From assembly GCA_963723785.1 (NCBI GenBank), contig CAVRSB010000004.1:31662-95661 (forward strand): DNA of 64,000 nt, in the 5' to 3' direction. Below are positions 22,562 to 63,646 of the stretch, piece by piece. The DNA comes from an uncultured Actinomycetes bacterium. GTDB taxonomy: Bacteria; Actinomycetota; Thermoleophilia; Gaiellales; JAICJC01. A model generated the notes under the pieces. That model saw only the letters and a program-made list of their open reading frames with translations, made no database searches and had not been told where the DNA came from. The stretch's first letter is position 1. Each line of letters opens with the position of its first letter. Made by a program: the position numbers and the translations under genes.

Positions 22562-23440
22562 ATGGGCTCCCAAATACGAGTGGCAGTCATCGGACTAATA
22601 ACGACCTGCGCGTTGTTTTTGGCGATCGCCTCGCCGGCCTCCGCAGCACCACGATTGAAGCATGTGTGGGTGGTCGTTCTCGAGAACCACAGCACCGGCC
22701 AGATCCTGGGGAATCCGCAGGCGCCGTACCTGAACAAGCTGGCCCGCCGAAACGGCCTGGCAACCCGGTACTACAGCCTCGACCATCCCAGTCTTCCAAA
22801 CTACCTTGCGTTGATCTCAGGATCCACGCAGGGGTGCGGATCGGACAGCTGCAAGCCGGGGTACGGCGGCCCGCTCTTGACGCGCCAACTGCGACATCGC
22901 CACCTGGCTTGGCGGGGATATTTCCAGGGACTGCCGCACGCGGGATACATCGGTGGCGACAAAGGCTCGTACGTCCGGCACCACAACCCGTTCGCGTACT
23001 TCAAGTCGATCACCAACTCTCACCACGCCCGGCGAAACATCCGCCCGTTGACGTCACTACGGCGCAGCCTGCGCCATCCGCCGGCGTTCAGCCTCGTGGT
23101 TCCCGACAATCAGCACAACATGCATACCGGCAGCATTGCCAAGTCCGACAAATGGCTCCGCCACTGGATCCCGAAGATCATCCATTCGCGCAAGTTCAGG
23201 CATCAAAGTGCGCTCTTCATCACCTTTGACGAGGGCCACAACGACTCCAGCGGCTGTTGCCTGCGCGGCGTTCACGGGGGCCGCACGGTGCTGATCGCCA
23301 TCACCTCCCACCGGCATCGCTCGAGACTGCATAAACCTCGCACCGCATACTCGCTGCTGCGCACCATCGAGAGCGGATTCCGGCTCAAGCCGATCGCGCA
23401 CGCCTCCCGCGTCCGCCCGCTCAACGCCTTCTGGCGGTGA
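22562..23440 (+). CDS. secreted phosphoesterase family protein (PF04185-like, single domain)
   Basis: ORF 22562..23440. Signal peptide, HVWVVVLENHS...HPSLPNYLALISG...HHNPFAYF. The stop TGA lies inside palindrome copy A. Confidence 0.85.
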   Translation: MGSQIRVAVIGLITTCALFLAIASPASAAPRLKHVWVVVLENHSTGQILGNPQAPYLNKLARRNGLATRYYSLDHPSLPNYLALISGSTQGCGSDSCKPGYGGPLLTRQLRHRHLAWRGYFQGLPHAGYIGGDKGSYVRHHNPFAYFKSITNSHHARRNIRPLTSLRRSLRHPPAFSLVVPDNQHNMHTGSIAKSDKWLRHWIPKIIHSRKFRHQSALFITFDEGHNDSSGCCLRGVHGGRTVLIAITSHRHRSRLHKPRTAYSLLRTIESGFRLKPIAHASRVRPLNAFWR

Positions 23441-23469
23441 ATAATTGGTGCCTGGCACCAATTATTCAC
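23437..23469. repeat. palindromic repeat copy A (33-bp type 1)
   Basis: GTGAATAATTGGTGCC-T-GGCACCAATTATTCAC, perfect 16-bp arms. Confidence 0.95.
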
Positions 23470-32646: not shown

Positions 32647-32679
32647 ATGAATAATTGGTGCCTGGCACCAATTCTTCAC
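32647..32679. repeat. palindromic repeat copy B (33-bp type 1, 2 mismatches)
   Basis: ATGAATAATTGGTGCC-T-GGCACCAATTCTTCAC. Confidence 0.9.
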
Positions 32680-32692
32680 TCCGGCCGCCCCG

Positions 32693-32723
32693 GTGAATAC
32701 CGGTGCCTGGCACCGTTATTCAC
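32693..32723. repeat. palindromic repeat copy C (31-bp type 2, 1 mismatch)
   Basis: GTGAATACCGGTGCC-T-GGCACCGTTATTCAC, 13 nt downstream of copy B. Confidence 0.9.
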
Positions 32724-33565
32724 TAGTACGTGCCGAACTGTTTCCAGAGTTGTTCGGCGGTATCCATGCGCCGATTGCGGGCGCCGCCCTTGCGCAAGGC
32801 GACACCTGCGGCCAGTGCCTCCAGCACCACCATGGCCGTGGCCGCGCTGGCGAAGCCGTCGCGCTTTCCCTGGCAGACCAGCACGTGATTTGCCTGACCC
32901 GCGGCCGGCGCCAGCAGGTCATCGGTGATCAGCACCACCGGCGCCCCGGCCGCGCGGAACAGCCGCACCACGTCGGCGGTCACCTTCGCGTAGCGCTGGA
33001 ACGTGAAGGCAATCAGGCGGTCGCGCGGCTCGAGGTCGATCAACTGGTCGGCGATCGTCGGCTCGCCGGCAGCGATCGGCCACACGTTCGAGAGCAGCGG
33101 GTTGAGCAGGTAGTAGGCGTACTCGGCCAGCGCCGCCGACTTGCGGTGTCCGAAGATCCCGATCTTGCCGTGTCCACGAACCAGCATCTCCACGGCGGCG
33201 TCGAACTGGCGGCGATCAACGCCCGCAGCCAGCGCCTCCAGATCACCGGCTGCCTGAAAGGCGATCTGCTCGATCGGGTGGGCCGAGGGGACGGTGCCGC
33301 GCACAGCGGGCTGCAGACGGGTGATCGCCTCGGATGCCAGCGCGTCGTGCAGCTCTGCGAACCCGGCGAACCCCACCCTGGTCGAGAACCGCACCACGGC
33401 CGCCTTGCTGACCCCGGTCTTGGCGGCCAGCGACTCGGCTGTCTCGAACGGCGCTTCCGCCGGGTGCTCGAGCACATAGGTCGCAATGCGACGGTCGTTC
33501 GGCGACAGCCGATCGAGATGGGAGCGGATCAACGCTGATACCGCCCCGTCGCCGAGGTCGATCAT
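32723..33565 (-). CDS. MurR/RpiR family transcriptional regulator (HTH_6 + SIS)
   Basis: ORF 32723..33565. N-terminal HTH (IATYVLEHPAEAPFETAESLAAKTGVSKAAVVRF) plus a SIS-like domain. The stop TAG overlaps the last base of palindrome copy C. Confidence 0.8.
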   Translation of the reverse strand: MIDLGDGAVSALIRSHLDRLSPNDRRIATYVLEHPAEAPFETAESLAAKTGVSKAAVVRFSTRVGFAGFAELHDALASEAITRLQPAVRGTVPSAHPIEQIAFQAAGDLEALAAGVDRRQFDAAVEMLVRGHGKIGIFGHRKSAALAEYAYYLLNPLLSNVWPIAAGEPTIADQLIDLEPRDRLIAFTFQRYAKVTADVVRLFRAAGAPVVLITDDLLAPAAGQANHVLVCQGKRDGFASAATAMVVLEALAAGVALRKGGARNRRMDTAEQLWKQFGTY

Positions 33566-33577
33566 GTGGCAATCATC

Positions 33578-33603
33578 GCACCCCGGCGCGAACGCCGGGG
33601 TGC
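33578..33603 (-). terminator. GC-rich hairpin downstream of clpC
   Basis: GCACCCCGGCG-CGAA-CGCCGGGGTGC: perfect 11-bp stem with a 4-nt loop, 10 nt after the clpC stop. Only a weak U-rich tail. Confidence 0.45.
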
Positions 33604-33613
33604 GAATGCCAAA

Positions 33614-36166
33614 TCAGTCCTCAGACGATGCCTCGTCGCCGTTCTCAGACGTCGGCTCGTCGTCGGCGGGACCCTCTGCGGGCACGAGATCGGCAGGCAG
33701 TGAATCGGGCACATCCACCGGCTCGATCAGCTGCAACGTCATCTCCTCGTCGCCCTCGTGATGATCGACCAGCACGGTCGATCCGGGCTGAAGCGCGCGG
33801 CCCAGAACGAAGTCGGCCAGCGGATCCTCGATGAAGCGCTGGATCGCCCGGCGCAGCGGTCGGGCACCCATGGTCGGGTCGTAGCCCTTGTCGACCATCA
33901 TGTCCTTGGCGGCATCGGTCAGCTCGATCGACACCTCGTGCACCTTCATCTGCTCGCGCAGACGCTTCATCAGCTGATCGACGATCAGCTTGATCTCGTC
34001 CTTGGTCAGCTTCTGGAACACGATGATCTCGTCGATGCGGTTGAGCAGCTCGGGCCGGAAGACCTTCTTCACGTCGCCCATGATGCGGCTCTTCATGTCC
34101 TCGTAGGACACTCCGGTCTCCGCCTCCTCGACCTGGAAGCCGAGCTGGCTGTTCTTGGCGATCGACGACGCTCCGATGTTGGAGGTCATGATCACGATCG
34201 TGTTCTTGAAGTCGACCTGACGGCCCTGAGCGTCGGTCAGCCGCCCCTCCTCCAGCATCTGCAGGAGGATGTTGAACACATCGGGGTGGGCCTTCTCGAT
34301 CTCGTCCAGCAGCACCACCGAGTACGGCTTGCGCCGCACGGCCTCGGTCAGCTGGCCGCCCTCGTCATATCCGACGTAGCCAGGAGGCGAGCCCACCAAC
34401 CTGGAGACCGCGTGCTTCTCCATGTACTCGGACATGTCGACCTGGATCATCGCGTCCTCGTCGCCGAACAGGAACTCGGCGAGCGTACGGGCCAGCTCGG
34501 TCTTGCCGACACCCGAGGGGCCGAGGAAGATGAACGAGCCGGTCGGCCGCTTGGGATCCTTGATCCCGGCGCGGGCGCGGCGGATGGCCTTGGACACGGC
34601 CTCGATCGCCACGTGCTGGCCGATCATCCGCTTGTGCAGCTCGTCCTCCATCCGGATCAGCTTCTGAGACTCAGCCTCGGTCAGCTTGAACACCGGGATG
34701 CCGGTCCACATGGACACGATGTCGGCGACCTCTTCCTCGCCGATCTGGGCATGGTCGGCCTCGCCGGAGGACTTCCAGTTCTCCTCGAGGTCGCGCTTCT
34801 TGAGGGTCAGCTTGCGCTCGGAGTCGCGCAGCGCCGCAGCCTTCTCGAACTCCTGCGACTCGATCGCCGACTCCTTCTCCTTGCGCACCGTCTCGATCTC
34901 GTCGTCGAGCTCCTTGTGCACCGGAGGTGCGGTCATCAGCTTGATGCGCATGCGCGACGCGGCCTCGTCGATCAGGTCGATGGCCTTGTCCGGAAGCTGG
35001 CGCTCCTGGATGTAGCGATCCGACAGCTCCGCAGCGGCCTGCAGCGCCTCGTCGGTGATGGCGACGCGATGGTGGGCCTCGTAGCGGTCGCGCAGCCCGC
35101 GCAAGATCTGCACGGTGTCCTCGATCGACGGCTCCTCCACCTTGATCTGCTGGAAGCGCCGCTCCAGCGCTGAGTCGCGCTCGAGGTACTTGCGGTACTC
35201 GTCCAGGGTGGTGGCACCGATCGTCTGCAGCTCGCCACGGGCCAGCGCCGGCTTCAGGATCGAGGCCGCGTCGATGGCGCCCTCGGCAGCACCCGCGCCG
35301 ACCAGGTTGTGCAGCTCGTCGATGAACAGCACGATGTCGCCGCGCTGGCCGATCTCCTTCATCACCTTCTTGAGCCGCTCCTCGAACTCACCGCGGTACT
35401 TGGAGCCGGCCACCAGAGCGGCCAGGTCAAGCGTGTAGATCTGCTTGCCCTTGAGCAGCTCGGGCACCTGGTTGGACGAGATCCGCTGGGCCAGTCCCTC
35501 GACCACCGCGGTCTTGCCGACACCGGGCTCACCGATCAGCACCGGATTGTTCTTGGTGCGGCGCGACAGGATCTGCATCACGCGCTCGATCTCGTTCTGA
35601 CGGCCGACGACCGGATCCAGCTTGCCCTCGGTCGCGAGCTTGGTCAGGTTGCGCCCGAACTGGTCGAGCAGCTTGGAGCTCTTGCCGCCCTTCTCGCCGG
35701 TCGCGCCGGTGCCCGCGCCCTGACGGCGGCCGGGGCCGGACAGCATCCGGATGATCTCGTTGCGAATCTTCTCTGCGTCGGCGTCGAAGTCGAGCAGGAT
35801 GCGGGCGGCCACGCCTTCGTTCTCGCGCACCAGCCCCAGCAGGATGTGCTCGGTGCCGATGTAGTTGTGACCCAGCGACAGCGCCTCGCGCAGCGCCAGC
35901 TCCAGCACCTTCTTGGCGCGCGGCGTGAACGGGATCTGGCCGGTGGTCACCTCGTCACCCTGGCCGACGATGCGGGCGACCTGCGCGCGCACCTCTTCCA
36001 CGGTGATATCGAGCGAGTCGAGGACACGGGCAGCGAGCCCTTCCTCCTCGCGCAGGAGACCCAGGAGGATGTGCTCAGTGCCGATGTAGTTGTGCTTGAG
36101 CGTGCGGGCCTCGTCCTGTGCAAGCACGACGACCTGGCGGGCACGCTCGGTGAAGCGTTCAAACAT
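33614..36166 (-). CDS. clpC: ATP-dependent Clp protease ATP-binding subunit ClpC
   Basis: ORF 33614..36166, 850 aa, uninterrupted. Two Clp_N repeats and two AAA+ modules ([16 protein letters not shown]). Confidence 0.95.
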
Positions 36167-36417
36167 GTTCGTGCCCCTTGTCGCTGATCTGGAAAAAGTT
36201 GGATGTCATGAAATGCTGAAGGCCGGCCTGCCAAACCGGCCGCGGATGGCTCGGTGGCATTCCGGTATCGAGGGAACGGATCGCACTATAGCACCCACCT
36301 TAACGGGCTCCCGGTGTGGTTTATTGCACGTTCGTTGGCCCCCTAATCGACCTTCTGTGACGGGCGCTTGAGGGGTTTTTCGCACCGCTGGGGAATCTGC
36401 CTGCAAATGGGCGTAAG

Positions 36418-36666
36418 ATGGACGTCGTGAATTTCGCGGTCGAACACTTCCGCGCGATCGACGCGCCGGAGTCGCCGCTCGGTATCGAGTACGTCTCGAC
36501 CGGCCAGATCGACCGGGTCGAGGCCCACGACGAGCCGGCCGCGGCAGCCATCGCGTTGTCGGCCCGCGACGACTTGCAGGAGCTCGACGTGGTGTCGTAC
36601 AACCCCGGCAAGGATCTGTACGGCGTTCTGGGCGAGGACGAGGCCGTGACGGGTGCGCCCGCCTAG
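36418..36666 (+). CDS. hypothetical small acidic protein (82 aa)
   Basis: ORF 36418..36666. Very high third-position GC, unlike the Arg/Pro-rich opposite-strand reading. No family recognised. Confidence 0.55.
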   Translation: MDVVNFAVEHFRAIDAPESPLGIEYVSTGQIDRVEAHDEPAAAAIALSARDDLQELDVVSYNPGKDLYGVLGEDEAVTGAPA

Positions 36667-37265
36667 CGCACGGGTCACCCAGCAGTTCTGCGTCGACCGC
36701 CGCGAGCCCGTCGAGGCTGGAGGTGTTCTTCTCGAGCATGTAGTCGATCAACGCCCGGTCGCCGCCCTTGCGCAGCTTGGTCTCGACCCATGCCGCCGCC
36801 TGCGGGCGCTCTCCCACCTGCTCCATCAGCGGCACGCCGAAGCCGCACGAGTCGGCGATCCGGTGCACGTCGACCACCACCACCGCCCGGCGATCAGCCC
36901 CGCCGGCGGGGGAATCGGGGTGATCGAAGCTTGCGGCCAGCTGCTCGAAGCCCTCGTCTCCGCGCTGCACGATCGTGCCGCGTGCCGTGCAGTCGCAGGA
37001 TCAGCGGCGGCCCGCTGAAGGCGCAGAACATGATCACGATGCGGCCGTTCTGGCGCACATGCGCGATCGTCTCGGCGCCGCTTCCCACCACGTCCAGGTA
37101 CGCGACCGTATGGCCGTCCAGCACCCGGAAGGTGCCGATCGGGCCCTTGGGCGACAGGTTGATGTGCCCGCCGTCGCCGGAGGGCGCCGAGCCGACGAAG
37201 AACATCGGCTGGTGCATGATCCACTCCGACAGCCGTTGATCGATGTGCTCGTGCACCTTGCCCAC
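36663..37265 (-). pseudogene. pyridoxamine 5'-phosphate oxidase family protein, frame interrupted; 3' end uncertain
   Basis: ORF 36894..37265 (N-terminus), then the frame of ORF 36206..36970 (VQRGDEGFEQL...VVVVDVHRIADSCGFGVPLMEQ...). Junction near 36975. Downstream of about 36690 the open frame is an antisense shadow of the 36418 gene. Confidence 0.6.
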
Positions 37266-37268
37266 TGG

Positions 37269-38724
37269 TCAACTCCCCTCGCGGCTGGGAGGGAAGAGGA
37301 TCACCTCGCGGATCGAGCGGATCCCGGTCAGCAGCATCATCAGACGGTCGATGCCGATGCCCACCCCGCCGGTGGGAGGCATGCCGTACTCGAGTGCCAG
37401 CAGGAAGTCCTCGTCCATCGGCGCCGCCTCGTCATCGCCGGCGGCGGCGGCCACGCGCGCCTCCTCGAACCGCGCCCGCTGCTCGGCCGGGTCGTTCAGC
37501 TCGGTGAACCCGTTCCCGATCTCCATGCCGTTGCAGAATGCCTCGAACCGCTCGGTCAGCCCGGGTTTGTCCGGCGCACGCTTGGCAAACGGCGACAGCT
37601 CGACCGGATACTCGGTGAGGAACACCGGGGCGGTGATCTTCGGCTCCACGTAGTGCGACAGCAGGTGGTCGACGGCCTGCGCCCAGGTGTGGTCGGCGGA
37701 GGTGTCGATGTCGTCGGCGCGCATGTGTGCGATCAGCCGGTCGAGGTCACGGTCGGCCATCGGGTCGATCCCCGCGTCGGCGATGATCGCGTCGCGCAAC
37801 GGCAGCCGCGGCCACGGCGGAGTCAGGTCGATCTCACTGCCCACCGCCTCGCCGGCGGCGGCCACCAGCCGCTCGGTCATGTTCATGCCGCTCTGGTAGT
37901 CGCCGTAGGCCTCGTACCACTCCAGCATCGTGAACTCGGGGCTGCGCTTGAAGCTGACGCCCTCGTTGCGAAAGTCCTTGCCGATCTCGTACACCCGCTC
38001 GAGGCCGCCGACGATCAGCCGCTTGAGATAGAGCTCGGTCGCGATCCGCAGGTAGAAGTCGCGCTCGTACGCGTTGTAGTAGGTGGTGAACGGCCGGGCG
38101 GCGCCGCCGCCGTAGAGCGGCTGCAGCACGGGCGTCTCGACCTCCACGAAGCCGTCGGCGTCCAGCACCCGGCGAAGCGCCGCGATCGCCACCGGACGGG
38201 CCATCGCCAGCGTCCGCGACTCCTCGTTGACCGCCAGGTCGAGGTAGCGGCGGCGGTGGCGCGTATCGACGTCGGTGAGCCCGTGGAACTTCTCGGGCAG
38301 CGGCCGCAGGCACTTGGCCAGCAGCGTCCACTCGGCCACCCGCAGGGACAGCTCACCGCGGCGGGAGACGAACACCTCTCCCTCGGCGGTGATCACGTCG
38401 CCCAGGTCGGAGTCCGACAGCGCGTCGTACCGATCCTCTCCGAGCCCGTCCAGGGTGGCGTGCAGCTGCAGCTGCCCGCTGCGGTCGGTGAGATCCAGGA
38501 ACATGGCCTTGCCGTGGCCGCGCCGAGCGGTGATGCGGCCGGCCAGCCGGGCTCGTTCACCGGTCTCGGCGCCCGGCTTCCAGCTCGGAGTAGCGGGCCC
38601 GCACGTCCTGCACCGGCTCCCGATCGACAGCTCGCGGCGGGTAGGGATCGACCCCCGACTCCCGCAGGACGTCGAGCTTGGCCAGGCGATCCGCCCGGAT
38701 CTGGGCTTCGGCGTCTGTGCTCAC
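37269..38724 (-). pseudogene. lysS: lysine--tRNA ligase (class II), frame interrupted once
   Basis: ORF 37269..38504 plus an N-terminal anticodon-binding part reached from GTG 38724. Junction near 38573 (GGG run). Class II motifs FRNEG and GGVGIGIDRL. Confidence 0.9.
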
Positions 38725-38736
38725 GAGAGGCGCCGC

Positions 38737-39213
38737 CTAGGCGGCTTTGATGTCCATGATCTTGAGCCGGATCGCGCCGGCCGGCGCCGCCACTTCGACG
38801 GTCTCGCCCTTCTTGTGGCCGATCAGGGCACGGCCGACAGGGGACTCGTTGGAGAGCCGCCCTGCTCCCGGGTCGGCTTCGGCCGATCCGACGATCTCGT
38901 AGGTGTCGGTGTCGCCGTGGTCGACGTCCTTGACGCGCACCTTCGACCCGACCGACACGACGTCGGTGGGCACGTCCTTGGCGTCGATCACCCGGGCCGA
39001 CCGCAGCTGTTCCTTCAGGCGCGCGATCCGATGCTCCAGCAGCGCCTGCTCGTTCTTGGCGTCGTCGTACTCGGAGTTCTCGGAGATGTCTCCGAACTCG
39101 CGCGCCTCCCGGATCCGATCAGCAACCTCGCGACGCCTGGTTGTTTCGAGTTCTTCGATCTGCGCCTTGAGCCGCTCGTAGCCTTCTGGGGTGAGGATTA
39201 CGTCCTTTTCCAC
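38737..39213 (-). CDS. greA: transcription elongation factor GreA
   Basis: ORF 38737..39294 trimmed to GTG 39213 behind AAGGA. ILTPEGYERLKAQIEEL coiled coil, SENSEYDDAK, C-terminal FKBP-like domain. Confidence 0.9.
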   Translation of the reverse strand: MEKDVILTPEGYERLKAQIEELETTRRREVADRIREAREFGDISENSEYDDAKNEQALLEHRIARLKEQLRSARVIDAKDVPTDVVSVGSKVRVKDVDHGDTDTYEIVGSAEADPGAGRLSNESPVGRALIGHKKGETVEVAAPAGAIRLKIMDIKAA

Positions 39214-39389
39214 GCTGACGTCCTTAGTTGGGGCCCATCCGGGCTCGCTCGCAAACACGAACGGTGTCGCCCCAGAGTGTGCGATTTGCAGCACTTTTCC
39301 TCTGGGCTGACACCGAGGAACGCCGGATTATACCCGTTTCCATGTGCACCGCAAACGTCGCATTCGAGCACGCTGGCTAGGATCCTGCC

Positions 39390-40459
39390 ATGAACCCGCT
39401 GACCGAGAACTGGTACATCAGGGATGTCGAGATTCCGTCCCGGATCGTGCTGGCGCCGATGGCGGGTGTCTCGGTGCAGGCGTTCCGCCGCCAGGGGCGT
39501 CGATTCGGGGCCGGGCTGGTGTGCTCGGAGATGGTTTCGTCGTGCGGGCTGTCCTACGGCAACGAGCGCACTCTGGGGTACCTGCGGATCGCCCGGGACG
39601 AGCATCCGCTGGCCGTCCAGATCTTTGGCTCCGAGCCCGAGCGGATGGCCGAGGCGGCCGAGATGGTGGTCGCGGCGGGCGCCGACATCGTCGACATCAA
39701 CTTCGGCTGCCCGGTTCGCAAGGTGACCAAGACCGGGGCCGGCGCCAGCGCGCTCGAGCAGCACGACCTCGCCTGCTCGCTTGGCCCGGGCGGTGGTGGA
39801 CGCGGTCGACGTGCCGGTGACGGTGAAGATGCGCCGCGGACTCGAGAACGGCTCGCGCACGGCTCTCGACCTGGGGCCCAAGCTCGAGGCCGAGGGGGTC
39901 GCGGCGCTGACGCTGCACCCGCGCTCGGCCAAGCAGATGTACACCGGCACCGCCGACCACACGCTCACGGCCGAGCTGGTCGAGCGCGTGTCGATTCCCG
40001 TGATCGCCTCGGGCGACATCACCGACCGCGCCCGGGCGCAGGTGGTGCTGGAGTCGACCGGCGCCGACGCGGTCATGGTCGGCCGCGGCGCGCAGGGGCG
40101 GCCGTGGGCGCTGAGCGAGATGGCCGGCGGCGAGTCGGCCGAGCCCGATCGCGCCGAGCTCTACGCCGAGCTGGTGCGGTTCATGCGCGAGGTGGTGCGG
40201 GAGATGGGCGACGAGCGCTCGGTCGGATTCCTGCGCAAGTTTTACGGCTGGTACCTGCGCGGTACCGAGGGCGCCCGCGCGGTGCGCGGCGAGCTGATGC
40301 TGTGCCAGACGGTGGACGCCGCCGAGCAGGTGCTGCTGAATGCCTGCCCCGAGGCCCGTGAGCTGCTGATCGCCCACGCGGCCGAGATCGACCTGCTGCC
40401 CGACCTCCGAGTCCGATCGCCTGCTCGACCTGCCGATCTCGATCTACGGCGGCGGGTGA
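39390..40459 (+). pseudogene. dus: tRNA-dihydrouridine synthase, frame interrupted twice
   Basis: ORFs 39390..40361 and 39781..41019. LAPMAGVS, DINFGCP, HPRS motifs. Junctions near 39775 and 40408. The high-GC3 tail (SESDRLLDLPISIYGGG) ends at TGA 40457-40459 inside palindrome copy D. Confidence 0.85.
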
Positions 40460-40487
40460 ATAACGGTGCCTGGCACCATTTATTCAC
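40456..40487. repeat. palindromic repeat copy D (32 bp; type 2 left arm, irregular right arm)
   Basis: GTGAATAACGGTGCC-T-GGCACCATTTATTCAC, between convergent dus and the GNAT gene. Confidence 0.9.
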
Positions 40488-40998
40488 CCCGACGACCTGG
40501 AGCCATTCCGGCTTGAGGCCGGGATTGACCTCGATTCGCATGCCGAGCTTGCGCATGACGCTGATCGAGGCCGAGGTTGGCGTGCTCGGTGGTGGCCACG
40601 ATCCGGGCCAGCTGCAGGTGGTCGAAGCCGAAGGCGATCAGCGCCGCAGCCGCCTCGGTGGCGTAACCCTGGCCGCGCTCGGCGGGCGCCGTTGCCCAGT
40701 ACAGACCGACCTCTGGGCGAAACCGGTGGGGATCGCTGCCGTCGCCGAGGCCGGGGATCAGCCCGAACGGCGCCAGGCACGGCACCAGCCCGACCAGTCC
40801 GACCAGCTCCCCATCGCTTTGGCGCTCCACGGCCCGTTCGCCGTAGGGCGGCTGGTTCAGATCCGCGAGCTGGGCGTATCCCGCCACGGTCCACTCGAGC
40901 CACTGGTCACGCCGCTCTCCCAGCACCCGCTGGACGCCCGCTGCATCACCGCCGGTCAGTGGACGCACCAGGAGACGTTCAGTCTCGAGCAACGGCAT
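40484..40998 (-). pseudogene. GNAT family N-acetyltransferase (RimJ/RimL-like), frame interrupted
   Basis: ORF 40480..40998 (N-terminus) continued in the frame of ORF 40242..40556 (ASISVMRKLGMRIEVNPGLKPEWLQVVG). As given the ORF stops at TAA 40480-40482. The corrected frame would stop at TGA 40484-40486. Both lie in the right arm of copy D. Confidence 0.75.
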
Positions 40999-41011
40999 CG
41001 CGCGATGATAG

Positions 41012-41042
41012 GTGAATAACGGTGCCCGGCACCGTTATTCAC
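41012..41042. repeat. palindromic repeat copy E (31-bp type 2, centre C)
   Basis: GTGAATAACGGTGCC-C-GGCACCGTTATTCAC, between the divergent GNAT and PhyH genes. Confidence 0.95.
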
Positions 41043-41056
41043 GACTAGTGCCGGGC

Positions 41057-41846
41057 ATGGGCAGAGTGGACGACTTTCAGCGAGACGGGGCGGTGGTGGT
41101 GCGGGCCGCGTTCACGCCCGCCGAGGTCGAGCAGGTCACACGCGGGATCGAGCGGAACCTGGCCGAGCCCAGCCCGCGGGCGCTGGTGGCGTCACGGGAT
41201 GACGATCCCGGGCAGGTTCTTCGAGGACTTCTGCAACTGGAGCCGCTTTCCCGAACTCGAGCAGGTGATTCGCGAGAGCCATGCCGCTGCGATCGCGGGA
41301 GAGCTGACGCGAAGCTCGCAGATCCGGCTCTATCACGATCACGTGCTCGTGAAGGAGGCTGCCACGCGCCAGCCGACTCCCTGGCACCAGGATCAGCCCT
41401 ACTACAACGTCGAGGGCCGCCAGACCTGCAGCGTGTGGATGCCGGTCGACCCGGTGCCGCGATCGGCCACGCTCGAGTTCGTGGCCGGCTCCCACCTGGG
41501 GCCGTGGCTGATGCCGCGGACATTCATGGACGGCCAGGCCAGCTGGTTCCCCGAGGGTGCGCTCGCCGACCTGCCCGACATCGAGGCCGACCGCGGCGCC
41601 TTCCCGATCATCGGCTGGGAGCTCGAGCCCGGCGATGCCGTCTTCTTCAACATGCTGACGCTGCACGCCTCCGGCCCCAGCAACGGTCTTCGGCGTGCCT
41701 TCTCGATCCGCTTCATCGGCGACGACGTGACCCACGCGCCGCGGGCCTGGAAGACCTCGCCCGAGTTTCCCGGCCTGGCCGAGCGACTGCCGGCCGGCGC
41801 GGCGATGCAGGACGAGCTGTTCCCGGTCGTGTGGGAGCGGCGCTAG
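41057..41846 (+). pseudogene. phytanoyl-CoA dioxygenase (PhyH) family 2OG-Fe(II) oxygenase, frame interrupted once
   Basis: Head in ORF 41012..42532 from ATG 41057 (MGRVDDFQRDGAVVV), body in ORF 41199..41846 (WHQDQPYY, HAS). Junction near 41211 (GGG run). Confidence 0.7.
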
Positions 41847-41849
41847 ACG

Positions 41850-42542
41850 CTACCGGCGCGAGCAGCGCCAACCCGCGCAGCGTCAGCCACGGATCGACAT
41901 GCGAGACGGTGCGACAGTGGGGAGCGACCACCTCCGAGTGCCCGCCGGTCGCCACCGCCGGCAGCTCCGCGCCCAGCTCGGCCCGAAACCGGGTGACAAG
42001 GCCGTCCACCATGGCCGCGTGCCCGAACACCGCCCCGGAGCGGATCGCTTCGGCGGTGTCGCGCTGCGATGGCATGGGCCGGGGCGTCGCAGCTCGATCA
42101 CCGGGAGTCGATCGGCGTGCTCGGTCAGCGCCGCCACCGAGATACCGATCCCCGGGGCAATCGCACCGCCCGCCCACTCGCCGGACGATGACACCACGTC
42201 CACCGTGGTTGCGGTACCCATGTCGACAACGATGCACGGCCCGCCCACCAGCGCGAACGCGGCGGCCGCGTCAGCCAGACGGTCGGCTCCCACCGGAGCC
42301 GCCGGCACCACGATCGGCGGGCGACCGGTCAGCTCGGTCACGACCGCGTGGTAGCCGGCATCGAGTGCCGGCCCGGCAGTCGCAACCACCACGCCGTCGA
42401 TGCCGTCGCCGATCAGCACCCCCACCAGCTCGCGATCGGCGTGGTCATGGTCGGTGGGGATCCGCCGGTGGGCGATCAACTCGTCGCCGTCGAACAGGCC
42501 TGCGACCGTGTCCGAGTTGCCTGCGTCGATGACCAGCAGCAC
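41850..42542 (-). pseudogene. coaX: type III pantothenate kinase, frame interrupted; 3' end approximate
   Basis: ORF 41883..42770 trimmed to GTG 42542 (LLVIDAGNSDT, VDMGTATTVD), continued in ORF 41713..42237 (DTAEAIRSGAVFG...DPWLTLRGLALL). Junction near 42110. Stop probably TAG 41850-41852 after one further indel. Confidence 0.8.
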
Positions 42543-42553
42543 TGCCGGCGTGG

Positions 42554-42892
42554 CTAGTCGTCCGACAGTTCGAAGCCGGGCGGCAGCACGGTGTCGATCG
42601 TGCCTTCGGGGCGCAGCTCCTCGACCGTCACGTCCTGGGTGGTGTGCACCTCTGCCCGCGGGATGATGCGGCTGGGCCGGTTCTTGTCCCACACCCACAC
42701 GTCCTCCATCGACAGGTGCACCATCGGGTAGGCGGTGGTGTGCTGGGACTCCATCACCAGCCGGTTGCACAGGTAGGTGGCCTCGGCCGTGAGCACGCAG
42801 TAGCGAAACATCCCGAAGACGGTTGCGTATTCGCGTTTCAGCCGGAGCTCAAGCTCGGCGTCGAACTCCTCGAGGTCCTCGAGAAACGACAT
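42554..42892 (-). CDS. DUF2469 domain-containing protein
   Basis: ORF 42554..42892, 112 aa. Conserved actinobacterial pattern (ELELRLKREY...DVWVWD). Confidence 0.75.
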   Translation of the reverse strand: MSFLEDLEEFDAELELRLKREYATVFGMFRYCVLTAEATYLCNRLVMESQHTTAYPMVHLSMEDVWVWDKNRPSRIIPRAEVHTTQDVTVEELRPEGTIDTVLPPGFELSDD

Positions 42893-42901
42893 GCCCCAAG
42901 T

Positions 42902-43404
42902 CTACGCATAAATGCGGCGGTCGCGCACGCCGATCACACCCGCACGACGCCCTGGGGCTCGATCTGCGACAGCCAGTCGCGGCGCGGTGCGTCCGCGGAT
43001 GATCGTCCCGGGGGCGATGTCGGCCAGCGGCCGCAGCACGAACTCGCGCTCGTGTGCACGCGGATGCGGCAGCTCCAGCGCGGGATCGTCGCGACTCGAC
43101 ACCGTCGTACCAGATCAGGTCGAGGTCGAGCGTGCGCGGGCCCCAGCGCCGGTCGCGCACGCGGCCGAACTCGGCTTCGATCGCCTGGAGGCCGGCGCAG
43201 CAGCTCGGCGGGAGCCAGCGGCGTCTCGAGCTCAGCCACGAGGTTGAGAAAGTCGGGCTGGTCGGTCACTCCGATGGCGGCGGTGCGGTAGGTCGGTGAC
43301 ACCGCCCGGACCTCACCGAGACGCTCGCAGGCACTCACCGCCCGGGGCAGCGTGTCCGCAGGATCCCCAAGATTCGCGCCGAATCCTACGAGCGCAACAG
43401 TCAC
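42902..43404 (-). pseudogene. folK: 2-amino-4-hydroxy-6-hydroxymethyldihydropteridine diphosphokinase, frame interrupted twice
   Basis: Pieces in ORFs 42934..43821 (VALVGFGANLGDP...), 42849..43160 (RDRRWGPRTLDLDLIWYDG) and 42902..43102 (LELPHPRAHEREFVLRPL). Start is GTG 43404, or ATG 43449. Confidence 0.85.
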
Positions 43405-43516
43405 CCGATGGGGTGCACTTTCCTTCGCGACCTTGACGAATTTGCTCATCTTTGCCGATGCTCGTGGGGGACGGCTTTTCGCGGGCCGTACCAAAGCTCC
43501 CACGCTCTGACGAAGG

Positions 43517-43831
43517 ATGACCATGTCGACCCTCATGGAATTGACCGTCGTGCTCCTGATCTGTCCGGCCGCCCTCGCCACGTGGGCCGACGCACGGTAC
43601 CCCAAGCTGCGGCCGCGCGAGATCCGGCGAACCACGATCCACCTCGGCATGACCGGCCTGATCGCGTTCGTCGCGATGAAGCCGCTGCTGAGCGAGATCT
43701 TCCAGCTGCTGTCCGGCCCCGCCGGGCGCGCAACCGCGCTGTGCATCTCCTGCATCGCCATCACGTACTGCCTGATGGTGTCGCTGTGGGTCGTGCGGCT
43801 CGCAACCGAGACCGCTCGCACCCGCCGCTAG
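43517..43831 (+). CDS. small membrane protein (hypothetical, 3 TM)
   Basis: ORF 43517..43831, high GC3, hydrophobic helices. Stop TAG lies 7 nt before palindrome copy F. Confidence 0.6.
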   Translation: MTMSTLMELTVVLLICPAALATWADARYPKLRPREIRRTTIHLGMTGLIAFVAMKPLLSEIFQLLSGPAGRATALCISCIAITYCLMVSLWVVRLATETARTRR

Positions 43832-43838
43832 GCTCGGG

Positions 43839-43869
43839 GTGAATAACGGTGCCTGGCACCGTTATTCAC
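43839..43869. repeat. palindromic repeat copy F (31-bp type 2, perfect)
   Basis: GTGAATAACGGTGCC-T-GGCACCGTTATTCAC. Confidence 0.95.
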
Positions 43870-43885
43870 AACCCACCGCTCAGGC

Positions 43886-43918
43886 GTGAATAATTGGTGC
43901 CTGGCACCAATTATTCAC
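43886..43918. repeat. palindromic repeat copy G (33-bp type 1, perfect)
   Basis: GTGAATAATTGGTGCC-T-GGCACCAATTATTCAC, 16 nt downstream of copy F. Confidence 0.95.
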
Positions 43919-51588: not shown

Positions 51589-51621
51589 GTGAATAATTGG
51601 TGCCTGGCACCAATTATTCAC
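51589..51621. repeat. palindromic repeat copy H (33-bp type 1, perfect)
   Basis: Identical to copies A and G. Lies in the 211-nt gap between the hydrolase gene and the 51018 gene. Confidence 0.95.
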
Positions 51622-51651
51622 TCCGACGCCCAGGTGGTGAGTCACGACAGG

Positions 51652-51781
51652 CGCCCTGAGGCGCAGGCCGTTGGGTCTGTGGCAAGGATCGAGCCGCGAG
51701 CGGAGCGCAGGCGTGGCAAAGCCACGGCGAGCACCGCACGCGGCGTGGGACGCCGCCACAGACCCAACGGGCCAGCCTCAG
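51652..51781. repeat. secondary hairpin module downstream of copy H, carrying a nested insertion
   Basis: CGCCCTGAGGCGC (51652-51664) and GGCCAGCCTCAG (51770-51781) match the copy-A module but are separated by about 105 nt that form a long extended stem. Confidence 0.7.
51670..51768. repeat. 99-bp MITE-like or hairpin insertion bounded by 14-bp perfect inverted repeats
   Basis: GTTGGGTCTGTGGC (51670-51683) and GCCACAGACCCAAC (51755-51768), flanked by GGCC on both sides. The interior holds a smaller hairpin, CGTGGC-AAA-GCCACG. Confidence 0.6.
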
Positions 51782-52578
51782 AGGAAGTCGGAGACGGCGA
51801 CGCCGAAGGAGTATGGGGCTTCGATCATAGGCATGTGGCCGACGCCGGGAAGCACCACTTCCTCGGCGCCGAGCAGGTCGGCGAACTCGGGGCCGTTGTC
51901 CCAGCCGGACTGGTCGTGCTCGCCCCACACCACCAGGCAGGGCACGTCCACGTCAGCGGCGATCGTGCGCAAGTCGAGATCTTCGAGCGCAGGCAGGGCT
52001 GACGGCACCACCGGCGCAGCCCGGGCCGCGCCTCGCAGCAGTGACCGGGCCTGATCCGGCTCCAAGCCGTCCAGGTCGTTCATGCCGACGAACCAGCCGA
52101 AGATCACCCTTCGCGGCCACCGCGAACGCGATGCGGCGGCTTCCCACAACCGCTCGCTGCGGGCCAGCACCTTGTGCACCGGCATCACCGCCCGCGCCCG
52201 CCGAATGTGCAGCGGCGTGATTCCCACGGGCGAGGCCAGCACCAGCGCCGACACCGGCCGCGCGGCCGCCCAGCAGACTGCGATCGGCACGCCGAACGAG
52301 TGACCCACAATCGCCGGGTTCTCGGCCTCGAGCTGATCGGCGGCGTCGGCCAGCACCGTCACCAGCCCGTCGAACGTGAACGGGTCCAGCGCCTCGCTGT
52401 CGCCGTGACCGGGGACGTCGAAGGCGATTACCCGGTGTCGCCGCGACAGGCGCTCGGCGAACGGTGCCCAGTAATCGAGCGACCCGGTGAGCCCATGGAC
52501 CAGCACCACCGGAGGCCCGGACCCCCACTCGGTGACGTTGATTCGCAGCCCGTCGACCGAGAGTGTACGGTTCTTCAC
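51778..52578 (-). CDS. alpha/beta hydrolase
   Basis: ORF 51778..52818 trimmed to GTG 52578. VVLVHGL oxyanion region, GHSFG nucleophile elbow, C-terminal GHMP. Confidence 0.8.
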   Translation of the reverse strand: MKNRTLSVDGLRINVTEWGSGPPVVLVHGLTGSLDYWAPFAERLSRRHRVIAFDVPGHGDSEALDPFTFDGLVTVLADAADQLEAENPAIVGHSFGVPIAVCWAAARPVSALVLASPVGITPLHIRRARAVMPVHKVLARSERLWEAAASRSRWPRRVIFGWFVGMNDLDGLEPDQARSLLRGAARAAPVVPSALPALEDLDLRTIAADVDVPCLVVWGEHDQSGWDNGPEFADLLGAEEVVLPGVGHMPMIEAPYSFGVAVSDFL

Positions 52579-63614: not shown

Positions 63615-63646
63615 GTGAATAAACGGTGCCTGGCACCGTTATTCAC
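63615..63646. repeat. palindromic repeat copy I (32 bp, type 2 with one extra A in the left arm)
   Basis: GTGAATAAACGGTGCC-T-GGCACCGTTATTCAC, between the ctaG-like start and the clpS stop. Confidence 0.9.

Follow-up and report, generated by a model that had tools for sequence, protein, structure and literature searches.

Mirrored palindrome subtypes in an uncultured Gaiellales bacterium are probably REP classes, each tied to its own lineage of Y1 transposase

We analyzed a 64,000-nucleotide stretch of DNA (the window; positions 31662-95661 of contig C4) from the genome of an uncultured soil actinobacterium of the order Gaiellales, here called G000, whose assembly comprises 1.78 Mb in 29 contigs with 68% GC and is 54% complete. 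The window holds nine palindromes of 31 to 33 bp, six of them within positions 32647-43918, with the layout GTGAATAA-linker-GGTGCC-W-GGCACC-linker'-TTATTCAC. The outer blocks spaced as GTGAATAA-N(10-22)-TTATTCAC matched 7 times in the window and never in 100 shuffles, and the core GGTGCCNGGCACC matched 9 times against 0.78 expected. The palindromes occur as subtypes whose differences are mirrored on the two arms, and we argue here that they are probably dispersed repeats of the repetitive extragenic palindrome (REP) type, belonging to transposases that resemble the tyrosine transposases associated with REPs (RAYTs), with the subtypes as REP classes.

A preliminary description, made from the letters alone, had placed nine copies (A to I), and all nine lay where it had put them (coordinates below are those of the window and carry no strand). 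It had distinguished a 33-bp type 1, with AATTGG paired with CCAATT, from a 31-bp type 2, with AACGG paired with CCGTT, and between these two types the differences are indeed mirrored; we refer to them as the long class (linkers AATT/AATT) and the short class (AAC/GTT). The long class is represented by copy A (23437-23469, center T), a perfect 33-bp palindrome whose TGA (23438-23440) ends an upstream phosphoesterase-family open reading frame (ORF), by the 33-bp copy G (43886-43918), whose TCA (43915-43917) is the TGA stop of a minus-strand luxR/GerE-family gene, and by the 33-bp copy H (51589-51621). To the short class belong copy E (41012-41042), which has the rare center C and lies 14 nt upstream of a GNAT start codon in a divergent gene context, and copy F (43839-43869, center T), 7 nt past a TAG stop. 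The claims that the differences are always mirrored and that the outer blocks are invariant went too far, as the remaining four copies have changes in single arms. Copy B (32647-32679, long class) has two unmirrored outer-block changes (ATGAATAA... and ...TTCTTCAC), and copy C (32693-32723, short class) has an unmirrored A-to-C change in the left arm only (GTGAATACC). The 32-bp copy D (40456-40487), which had been taken for a near-variant of type 2, is instead a chimera that joins the AAC left arm of the short class to an ATTT right arm from another class; it lies between convergent dus and GNAT genes, with the GNAT TAA inside its right arm. The 32-bp copy I (63615-63646) is of the short class with a one-base insertion in its left arm (AAAC/GTT), and its TCA (63643-63645) is the stop of a minus-strand ORF. 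Copies B and C are the left and right halves of a tight doublet with a 13-bp spacer, B being downstream of an rpiR-like and upstream of a radA-like gene and C having its last base within the TAG stop of the minus-strand rpiR-like gene; F and G are likewise the left and right halves of a doublet, with a 16-bp spacer.

Using a tolerant pattern, we counted about 129 copies in G000. The linkers were AAC/GTT in 38 copies, AATT/AATT in 32, AAAA/TTTT in 7, AATC/GATT in 2, AAAT/ATTT in 1 and non-mirrored in 49 (n = 129), and in 14 of these 49, canonical arms of two classes met within the shared core (for example AAAA/GTT, AAC/ATTT and AATT/TTTT). The core read CCWGG around the center W, the Dcm/EcoRII-type site, in 127 of 129 copies, copy E being one of the two exceptions. 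Gene contexts came from a crude GC3-based gene call that served for statistics only (some genes were miscalled, for example around 40456); it gave 61 convergent, 30 + 21 tandem and 5 divergent contexts, with only 9 of about 126 copies inside called ORFs. At 65 gene ends the gene overlapped the element by exactly 4 or 8 nt, which means that those genes stop at the element's own TGA or TAA. The elements thus supply stop codons, and they also create long spurious ORFs, which is relevant to gene callers. The hairpins of the two classes, both with a 3-nt loop, were equal in folding stability (about -14.7 kcal/mol as DNA). The flanks contained no insertion target motif; their sole signal was G at -1 together with C at +1, adding one pair to the stem. 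Four sister genomes carried 195 to 299 copies each, and most other genomes of the order carried none. Single matches to the full pattern were also seen at three loci (L048, L096 and L113) in metagenome-assembled genomes binned as Eubacteriales, Steroidobacteraceae and Eggerthellaceae, for which mis-binning, chance or transfer are possible. At one G000 site (C9:55197-55277) the left arm GTGAATAACG stands in three tandem copies ahead of the core of one element.

We evaluated the covariation of mirrored positions in a pool of the G000 copies and 166 copies of related genomes (294 in all); the resulting figures are family-level ones, drawn from kindred copies gathered by means of a pattern with fixed blocks, and do not count independent events. 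In the 33-bp class the linker was fully complementary in 69% of 150 copies, compared with 19% when the right arms were shuffled (0 of 2000 shuffles as high), and nine mirrored three-base linkers were found (AAA, AAC, AAT, ACC, ATC, ATT, CCC, GCC and TCC). Among the 75 distinct sequences, 93.1% of cells paired, against 86.5% after shuffling and 30 to 46% in slid controls; cells changed on both sides numbered 86 against 23.6 and the covariation score was 0.191 against 0.068 (0 of 500 shuffles as high in either case). At least three Watson-Crick types occurred at each of the pairs 8-26, 9-25 and 10-24, and pair 4-30 also covaried, from A-T to C-G in the GTGCATAA...TTATGCAC variants. Linker complementarity is therefore far above chance in the family, and yet 38% of the G000 copies are unmirrored, which indicates that the copies inherited their complementarity from a source element and that it is not upheld at each locus. 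Of the three causes that had been proposed for the mirrored changes, a hairpin remains the best supported, with the qualification that selection on it at each copy does not fit the unmirrored share.

The pairing was not symmetrical between the strands. G.T wobbles lay 53 times on the strand with the center T and 19 times on the other, a split that is significant overall if one sets aside that the copies are not independent (P value = 8e-5), and in G000 alone the split was 23 to 8. More distant genomes shared the core and outer blocks and had other linkers, among them mirrored ones (ACC/GGT, CCC/GGG, TCC/GGA) and also one-strand wobble or asymmetric forms (TTT/GGA, with the wobble on one strand only, and CAC/TAA). 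A coupling of the AATC/AATT mismatch to the center base was considered and failed (3 versus 3 in G000).

A search of 41 relatives in the order with the Pfam profile Y1_Tnp gave matches in 33 genomes, and a protein search within the genus gave 1 to 4 transposase homologues per sister genome. The protein has about 230 amino acids and contains NHAHLL (HuH) and RYIALNP motifs that were conserved in 29 homologues; the latter is an instance of the Y---NP signature of class-2 TnpA_Y1 proteins (bioRxiv 10.1101/279083). It scored 27 to 37 bits against Y1_Tnp (cut-off 23), its top NCBIfam match was the REP-associated tyrosine transposase (NF047646, 61 to 73 bits), and a C-terminal helix-turn-helix was indicated by matches to Sigma70_r4, HTH_23 and HTH_28 at residues of about 195-229, where the structure model has helices. 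A sequence-profile search of the PDB with the transposase returned nothing. With the AlphaFold model (pLDDT 89.5), the top PDB match was 4ER8_A (E value = 8.7e-8, target TM 0.75), the structure of E. coli TnpA_REP, a REP-associated transposase, in complex with a REP hairpin, and the transposases of IS200, IS608 and ISDra2 ranked after it.

Among the close RAYT-like Y1/HuH transposase genes examined in sister genomes and related contigs, 13 of 14 had a palindrome of one class at one end or at both. Nine of the close homologues had a single class at both ends, about 70 to 200 bp upstream (coding-strand center A) and on the stop codon (center T), so that the flanking copies stand in inverted polarity. 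Only the upstream copy was found at P0002, P0004, P0006 and P0013, the upstream copy of P0005 had center T, and P0011 showed no flanking palindrome; of the eleven further homologues that a protein collection contributed, 10 had flanking palindromes. The genes G004_C24, G005_C11 and P0001-3 were flanked by AAC/GTT, G001_C13, G002_C18 and P0013 by AATT/AATT, G002_C29 and P0012 by AAAA/TTTT, and G005_C6, P0008 and P0009 by AAAT/ATTT, while P0004-6 had variants with compensated outer-block changes (for example GTGACTAAAC...GTTTAGTCAC). Homologues in other genera were flanked by different palindromes, such as GTGAATAGACGGGGTCWGACCCCGTTTATTCAC in G007 and GCAACAAACGTGCCWGGCACGTTTGTTGC in G003. The related contigs place the transposase locus between leuD and DUF8230; the AATT-flanked genes of G001 and G002 and the AAC-flanked genes of G004 and G005 have a common downstream flank, and the upstream gene end is common to G001, G002 and G005. 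In a metagenome scan for RAYT relatives we recovered only distant proteins (33 to 48% identity), and 14 of 25 of their loci had a 14-mer or longer word common to both flanks, which fits flanks made of terminal inverted repeats or REPs in general and is uninformative on the subtypes.

The flanking class followed the phylogeny of the enzymes. In a maximum-likelihood tree each class formed one clade (support 81/90 for AAC, 100/98 for AATT, 100/99 for AAAA and 86/71 for AAAT), and the class labels required 9 changes on the tree, the minimum, compared with a shuffled mean of 15.8 (0 of 200 shuffles as low). The enzymes of the four classes are 55 to 75% identical, and the classes differ by only 2 to 3 bp in one linker. 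Class repertoires, sampled from 8-kb stretches around pattern matches, agreed in part with the genes present: in G004, 25 of 31 sampled copies were AAC and the only gene was of the AAC type; G005 had only AAAT (12) and AAC (9) copies and genes of these two types; and G002 had AAAA (14), AAC (12) and AATT (5) copies and genes of the AAAA and AATT types.

Because each class flanks one transposase clade in the sister genomes, we interpret the subtypes as REP classes with cognate transposases. We put at roughly 0.78 the probability that the palindromes are REP-type dispersed repeats for Y1 (HuH) transposases of the RAYT kind or of the related TIRYT kind and that the two subtypes are two such classes, each tied to its own transposase lineage. 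The transposase would recognize the hairpins as folded single strands, and it probably spreads and replaces them; binding and cutting of these hairpins is what the enzyme family and its fold suggest. The short and long classes differ only in the 2- to 3-bp linker between the conserved outer block and the conserved CCWGG core, and this linker may set the specificity of the enzyme. The differences are mirrored, on this interpretation, since every class goes back to a source hairpin that can serve as a substrate only if its arms pair. After dispersal, decay and arm exchange between copies would yield the unmirrored and the chimeric copies. Mobilization may take place on single-stranded DNA at replication forks, and copies may double as gene-end hairpins for the host.

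Several observations weigh against this interpretation. No transposase gene was found in G000 by the Pfam-based search, the protein search or tblastn in an assembly that is 54% complete; the flanks of the RAYT locus of four relatives are not in this assembly, and since that locus is unassembled, absence of the gene from G000 cannot be claimed. Homologues matching Y1_Tnp occur also in genomes without this palindrome, so that the presence of the gene alone is not diagnostic. The NF047646 scores given above fall under the curated cut-off of 80, and the elements start with GTGAATAA (GTGA), without the GT[AG]G foot of canonical REPs. The test of class against clade covers 12 genes in four classes, some of them close relatives. 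G002 has many AAC copies, and no AAC-type gene was found in it at 93% completeness. Finally, two in-frame TGA codons interrupt the AAAT-flanked gene of G005 (C6:115149-115793, locus L030). Despite this, AAAT is more frequent than any other class among the copies sampled in G005, and P0009 is an intact close relative of the gene.

To follow single copies between genomes, we compared G000 with G001, G002, G004 and G005 at orthologous sites matched by their flanks (83 to 96% identical at class-changing sites). The class was kept at about 7 shared sites, and at 11 of 18 shared gene ends both arms belonged to a different class in the other genome, with the same junctions. Several sites were empty in one genome (G005/G006 or G000) where relatives were filled. 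AAAA in G001/G002 (five sites) or AAAT in G002 (one site) stood opposite AATT or AATT-derived linkers in G000, and this set includes G and H. The orthologs of both G and H in G001 are AAAA/TTTT, and at the former the doublet spacers differ by one base. Site D was found in five states in five genomes (AAC/ATTT in G000, AAC/GTT in G004, AAAA/TTTT in G001, AAAA/ATTT in G002 and AAAT/ATTT in G005), and the copy at G000 C3:82885 reads AAAA/GTT where G002 has AAAA/TTTT and G004 has AAC/GTT. The ortholog of B is intact in G004 and its site is empty in G005 and G006; that of E has center T in G002 and center A in G001 and G004, with an empty site in G005; F is unchanged in class in G001 and G004; and the G004 ortholog of I is a perfect AAC/GTT copy.

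Tight doublets (12- to 20-bp spacer) always combined one short (AAC/GTT) and one long (AATT, AAAA or AAAT) copy and never two of the same class. This was the case for 11 of 11 doublets in G000 (P value about 4e-4), for all 14 listed in G001 and for all 10 in the sampled loci of relatives, and the rule held in G004 too, where long copies are rare. The idea that a doublet is one conserved composite repeat was dropped, as the spacers are not conserved beyond a frequent CAC and resemble leftover intergenic DNA. The doublets also differ from REPINs, in which the same REP occurs twice, inverted, around a conserved spacer, the pair forming one long hairpin and moving as a unit: they mix classes, and each member folds alone.

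We hypothesize that the both-arm class changes at fixed junctions point to replacement or arm exchange in place, which is not part of the published model. We tentatively raise a possibility that we regard as having well under an even chance: dispersed copies may be stable in site and labile in sequence, the hairpin at a fixed gene end being repeatedly replaced, or converted on both arms, to the class favored by the current transposase repertoire, by a cut-and-replace or arm-exchange reaction. Such replacement would jointly explain the class switches at 11 of 18 sites, the chimeric arms and the flips of the center base, and the short-plus-long doublets may be a related product of it. The published model, by contrast, is one of copying and decay, with old classes simply eroding where they stand.

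We also evaluated the single center base (T or A), which is the palindrome's only asymmetry. Across 126 G000 copies it tracked the local GC skew (±25 kb; Fisher test, P value = 2.4e-7): with negative skew, T was on the plus strand at 70 of 79 T-center copies, and with positive skew, A was on the plus strand at 26 of 47 A-center copies. In a logistic fit, gene-strand bias added nothing beyond GC skew. Transcription direction as the cause of this polarity was rejected, T on the plus strand predominating in the '--' (26:4) and '++' (14:6) contexts alike. The polarity clustered by contig in G001 (chi-square 40, 9 df), and the center base flips between orthologous copies of sister genomes despite following skew.

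These strand asymmetries bear on whether the palindromes act folded or as duplex. The preliminary description had offered a symmetric dimeric binding protein as one cause of the mirrored changes, and in this account the palindromes would be duplex sites for a nucleoid or regulatory protein, or for the helix-turn-helix domain at the transposase C terminus, and the subtypes would be two half-site variants whose symmetry the dimer preserves. The perfect dyad symmetry around a single-base center in most copies, the CCWGG core in all but two G000 copies and the presence of that domain all agree with it. The wobble bias toward one strand would however be meaningless for duplex recognition, related lineages keep the asymmetric linkers TTT/GGA and CAC/TAA, the center-base polarity tracks replication-related skew, and the sites number in the hundreds and lie at gene 3' ends instead of promoters. 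The hairpin-binding enzyme family, the strand-biased wobbles, the one-strand-wobble linkers and the link of the center base to GC skew favor the folded single strand, and a duplex-binding dimer, which is not needed and fits the asymmetries poorly, is weakened to the point that we consider it very unlikely indeed. We judge it quite unlikely that the elements are instead host RNA hairpins, either factor-independent terminators or 3'-end protectors resembling the TRIT elements of mycobacteria, with RNA pairing selected at each gene end and the transposase link incidental or secondary. Their position at gene 3' ends, mostly convergent and with stop codons overlapped by 4 or 8 nt, is what such a role would predict, the RNA folds of the two classes are equally stable (-20.6 and -21.1 kcal/mol), TRIT in another actinobacterial group is palindromic, bidirectional and centered about 8 nt before stop codons (PMC3152330), and E. 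coli REPs are reported to influence mRNA stability and termination (summarized in bioRxiv 10.1101/279083). But pairing is not kept per locus in the 38% of G000 copies with unmirrored linkers, the classes go with transposase clades, the center-base polarity follows GC skew and not transcription direction, copy E lies in a divergent promoter region, and some sister genomes are empty at orthologous gene ends. Nor do the elements resemble a canonical intrinsic terminator, a GC-rich hairpin with a T/U run: the foot of the stem is AT-rich, and no T run follows 3' of the hairpin (T 9 to 25% at positions +1 to +12). A host role may exist as a secondary use of REP copies.

The mirrored changes might also have a mechanical origin. 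One arm of an extruded hairpin would serve as the template for the other, as the preliminary description had proposed, or conversion would swap entire arms between copies; any change in a single arm would then become mirrored or be erased, and the classes would spread by homogenization. The 14 chimeras among the 49 unmirrored G000 copies, with their breaks in the shared core, fit this well, as do the AAAA/GTT copy at C3:82885 beside its two non-chimeric orthologs, the both-arm changes at 11 of 18 shared sites within flanks 83 to 96% identical, and the AAAA or AAAT copies of G001 and G002 opposite AATT or AATT-derived ones in G000. Copying of this kind may thus account for the chimeras and the in-place class switches. 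It leaves unexplained why transposase genes are bracketed by class according to clade and why abundance is confined to a few linker variants, and many single-arm variants persist uncorrected; we therefore regard it as improbable as an alternative and rather as a possible step within the REP and transposase explanation.

The REP/RAYT systems (REPtrons; E. coli yafM/TnpA_REP with Y/Z REPs, Pseudomonas and Stenotrophomonas; PMC2817692, PMC3686654, PMC3116915) are the closest known counterpart. There, RAYT genes are flanked by inverted REPs whose palindromy is kept via complementary mutations (PMC2817692, PMC3686654, bioRxiv 10.1101/279083), each tnpA_REP has one REP family (bioRxiv 10.1101/279083), and syntenic RAYT genes can carry different REP classes, an 'orthoswitch' (PMC3686654), the counterpart of which is AATT (G001/G002) versus AAC (G004/G005) at the transposase locus described above. 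Shared with these systems are short palindromes, mostly extragenic and more than 100 to a genome, a Y1/HuH gene of low copy number that lies between inverted copies, the pairing of each transposase lineage with one REP class, complementary changes, the orthoswitch, doublets, stop codons supplied to neighbors and the enzyme fold (4ER8). Besides the missing foot, the palindrome here differs in being near-perfect with a one-base center, whereas canonical REPs fold imperfectly and have a loop; the enzyme ends in a helix-turn-helix at its C terminus and scores under the NCBIfam RAYT cut-off; the system occurs in an actinobacterium of the Gaiellales/Thermoleophilia; and the classes are separated by the 2- to 3-bp linker alone, with heterotypic doublets and in-place class switches.

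TIRYT genes (TIRtrons; Di Nocera et al. 2013, PMC3733652) are RAYT-like genes that lie between inverted repeats with the motif GGGGWSAS, part of these repeats being self-complementary. They share with the present genes the RAYT-like protein with a C-terminal extension of the helix-turn-helix type and inverted flanking repeats, some self-complementary, that are repeated genome-wide singly or as dimers; in S. maltophilia K279a each gene has one such family. GGGGWSAS is matched by the sister-genus core GGGGTCAG (G007 and G020 carry GGGGTCAGACCCC), whereas the genus studied here has GGTGCCWGGCACC, with a core GGTGCCWG that does not, and 200 to 300 copies per genome compared with families described as 'moderately abundant'. 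TIRYT has been placed in TnpA_Y1 subclass 2.1, beside whose genes no REP-like structures were found (Quentin et al. 2018, bioRxiv 10.1101/279083). With TRIT of Mycobacterium (Gardner et al. 2011, PMC3152330), which we compared by position relative to stop codons only, the elements share a conserved actinobacterial palindromic hairpin at about 150 copies per genome, bidirectional and on or just before stops; TRIT has another sequence, is reported to be restricted to Mycobacterium and has no transposase reported. The IS200/IS605 family (IS608, ISDra2) has the same Y1/HuH fold, subterminal hairpins recognized in single-stranded DNA and an orientation coupled to replication direction, which parallels the link between center base and GC skew; there, transposase and ends move as one multi-copy unit, whereas the present gene stays in low copy number at a fixed locus, and dispersal is limited to the 31- to 33-bp hairpins.

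The main features have thus all been described for Gammaproteobacteria, and what we describe is a feature of a known kind in a lineage that has been little studied. The founding REP/RAYT paper found such systems in Gammaproteobacteria only, and we found no mention of Actinobacteria in the REP/RAYT and TIRYT literature compared (PMC2817692, PMC3686654, PMC3733652, bioRxiv 10.1101/279083). The present results would place a REP/RAYT-type system in uncultured soil Gaiellales (Actinomycetota), with REP-like neighbors beside an enzyme type with a helix-turn-helix tail that had earlier been reported without them, and the mirrored subtypes are accordingly not evidence of a new structured RNA or regulator site. 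At least four classes, 2 to 3 bp apart and with enzymes 55 to 75% identical, form a compact natural series for the hairpin specificity of HuH enzymes. In-place switching, heterotypic doublets and replication-linked polarity bear on how REP populations follow their transposase, and all three can be tested cheaply on many long-read soil genomes.

Two further observations concern the surroundings of individual copies in the window, in which a search with Rfam at gathering thresholds gave no match. A second hairpin repeat of about 128 nt (CCTGAGGCGCAGGCCGTTGGGTCTGTGGCAAGG...GCCACAGACCCAACGGGCCAGCCTCAGAGG) comes after copy H, at window positions 51654-51782 (G000 C4:83315-83443), and recurs in G000 at C3:33544, C3:251365, C8:30982 and C20:44859. 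It always adjoins a REP copy, and relatives hold insertions at sites AB (G004) and FH (G002); the DNA fold of window positions 51622-51810 reached -67 kcal/mol (z -8.1). The dus gene next to copy D (39390-40455) is split over two frames (39390-40361 and 39781 onward), the halves matching positions 2-112 and 113-304 of the Pfam Dus profile, which is the result of either a frameshift or an assembly error, and the second frame runs on through copy D.

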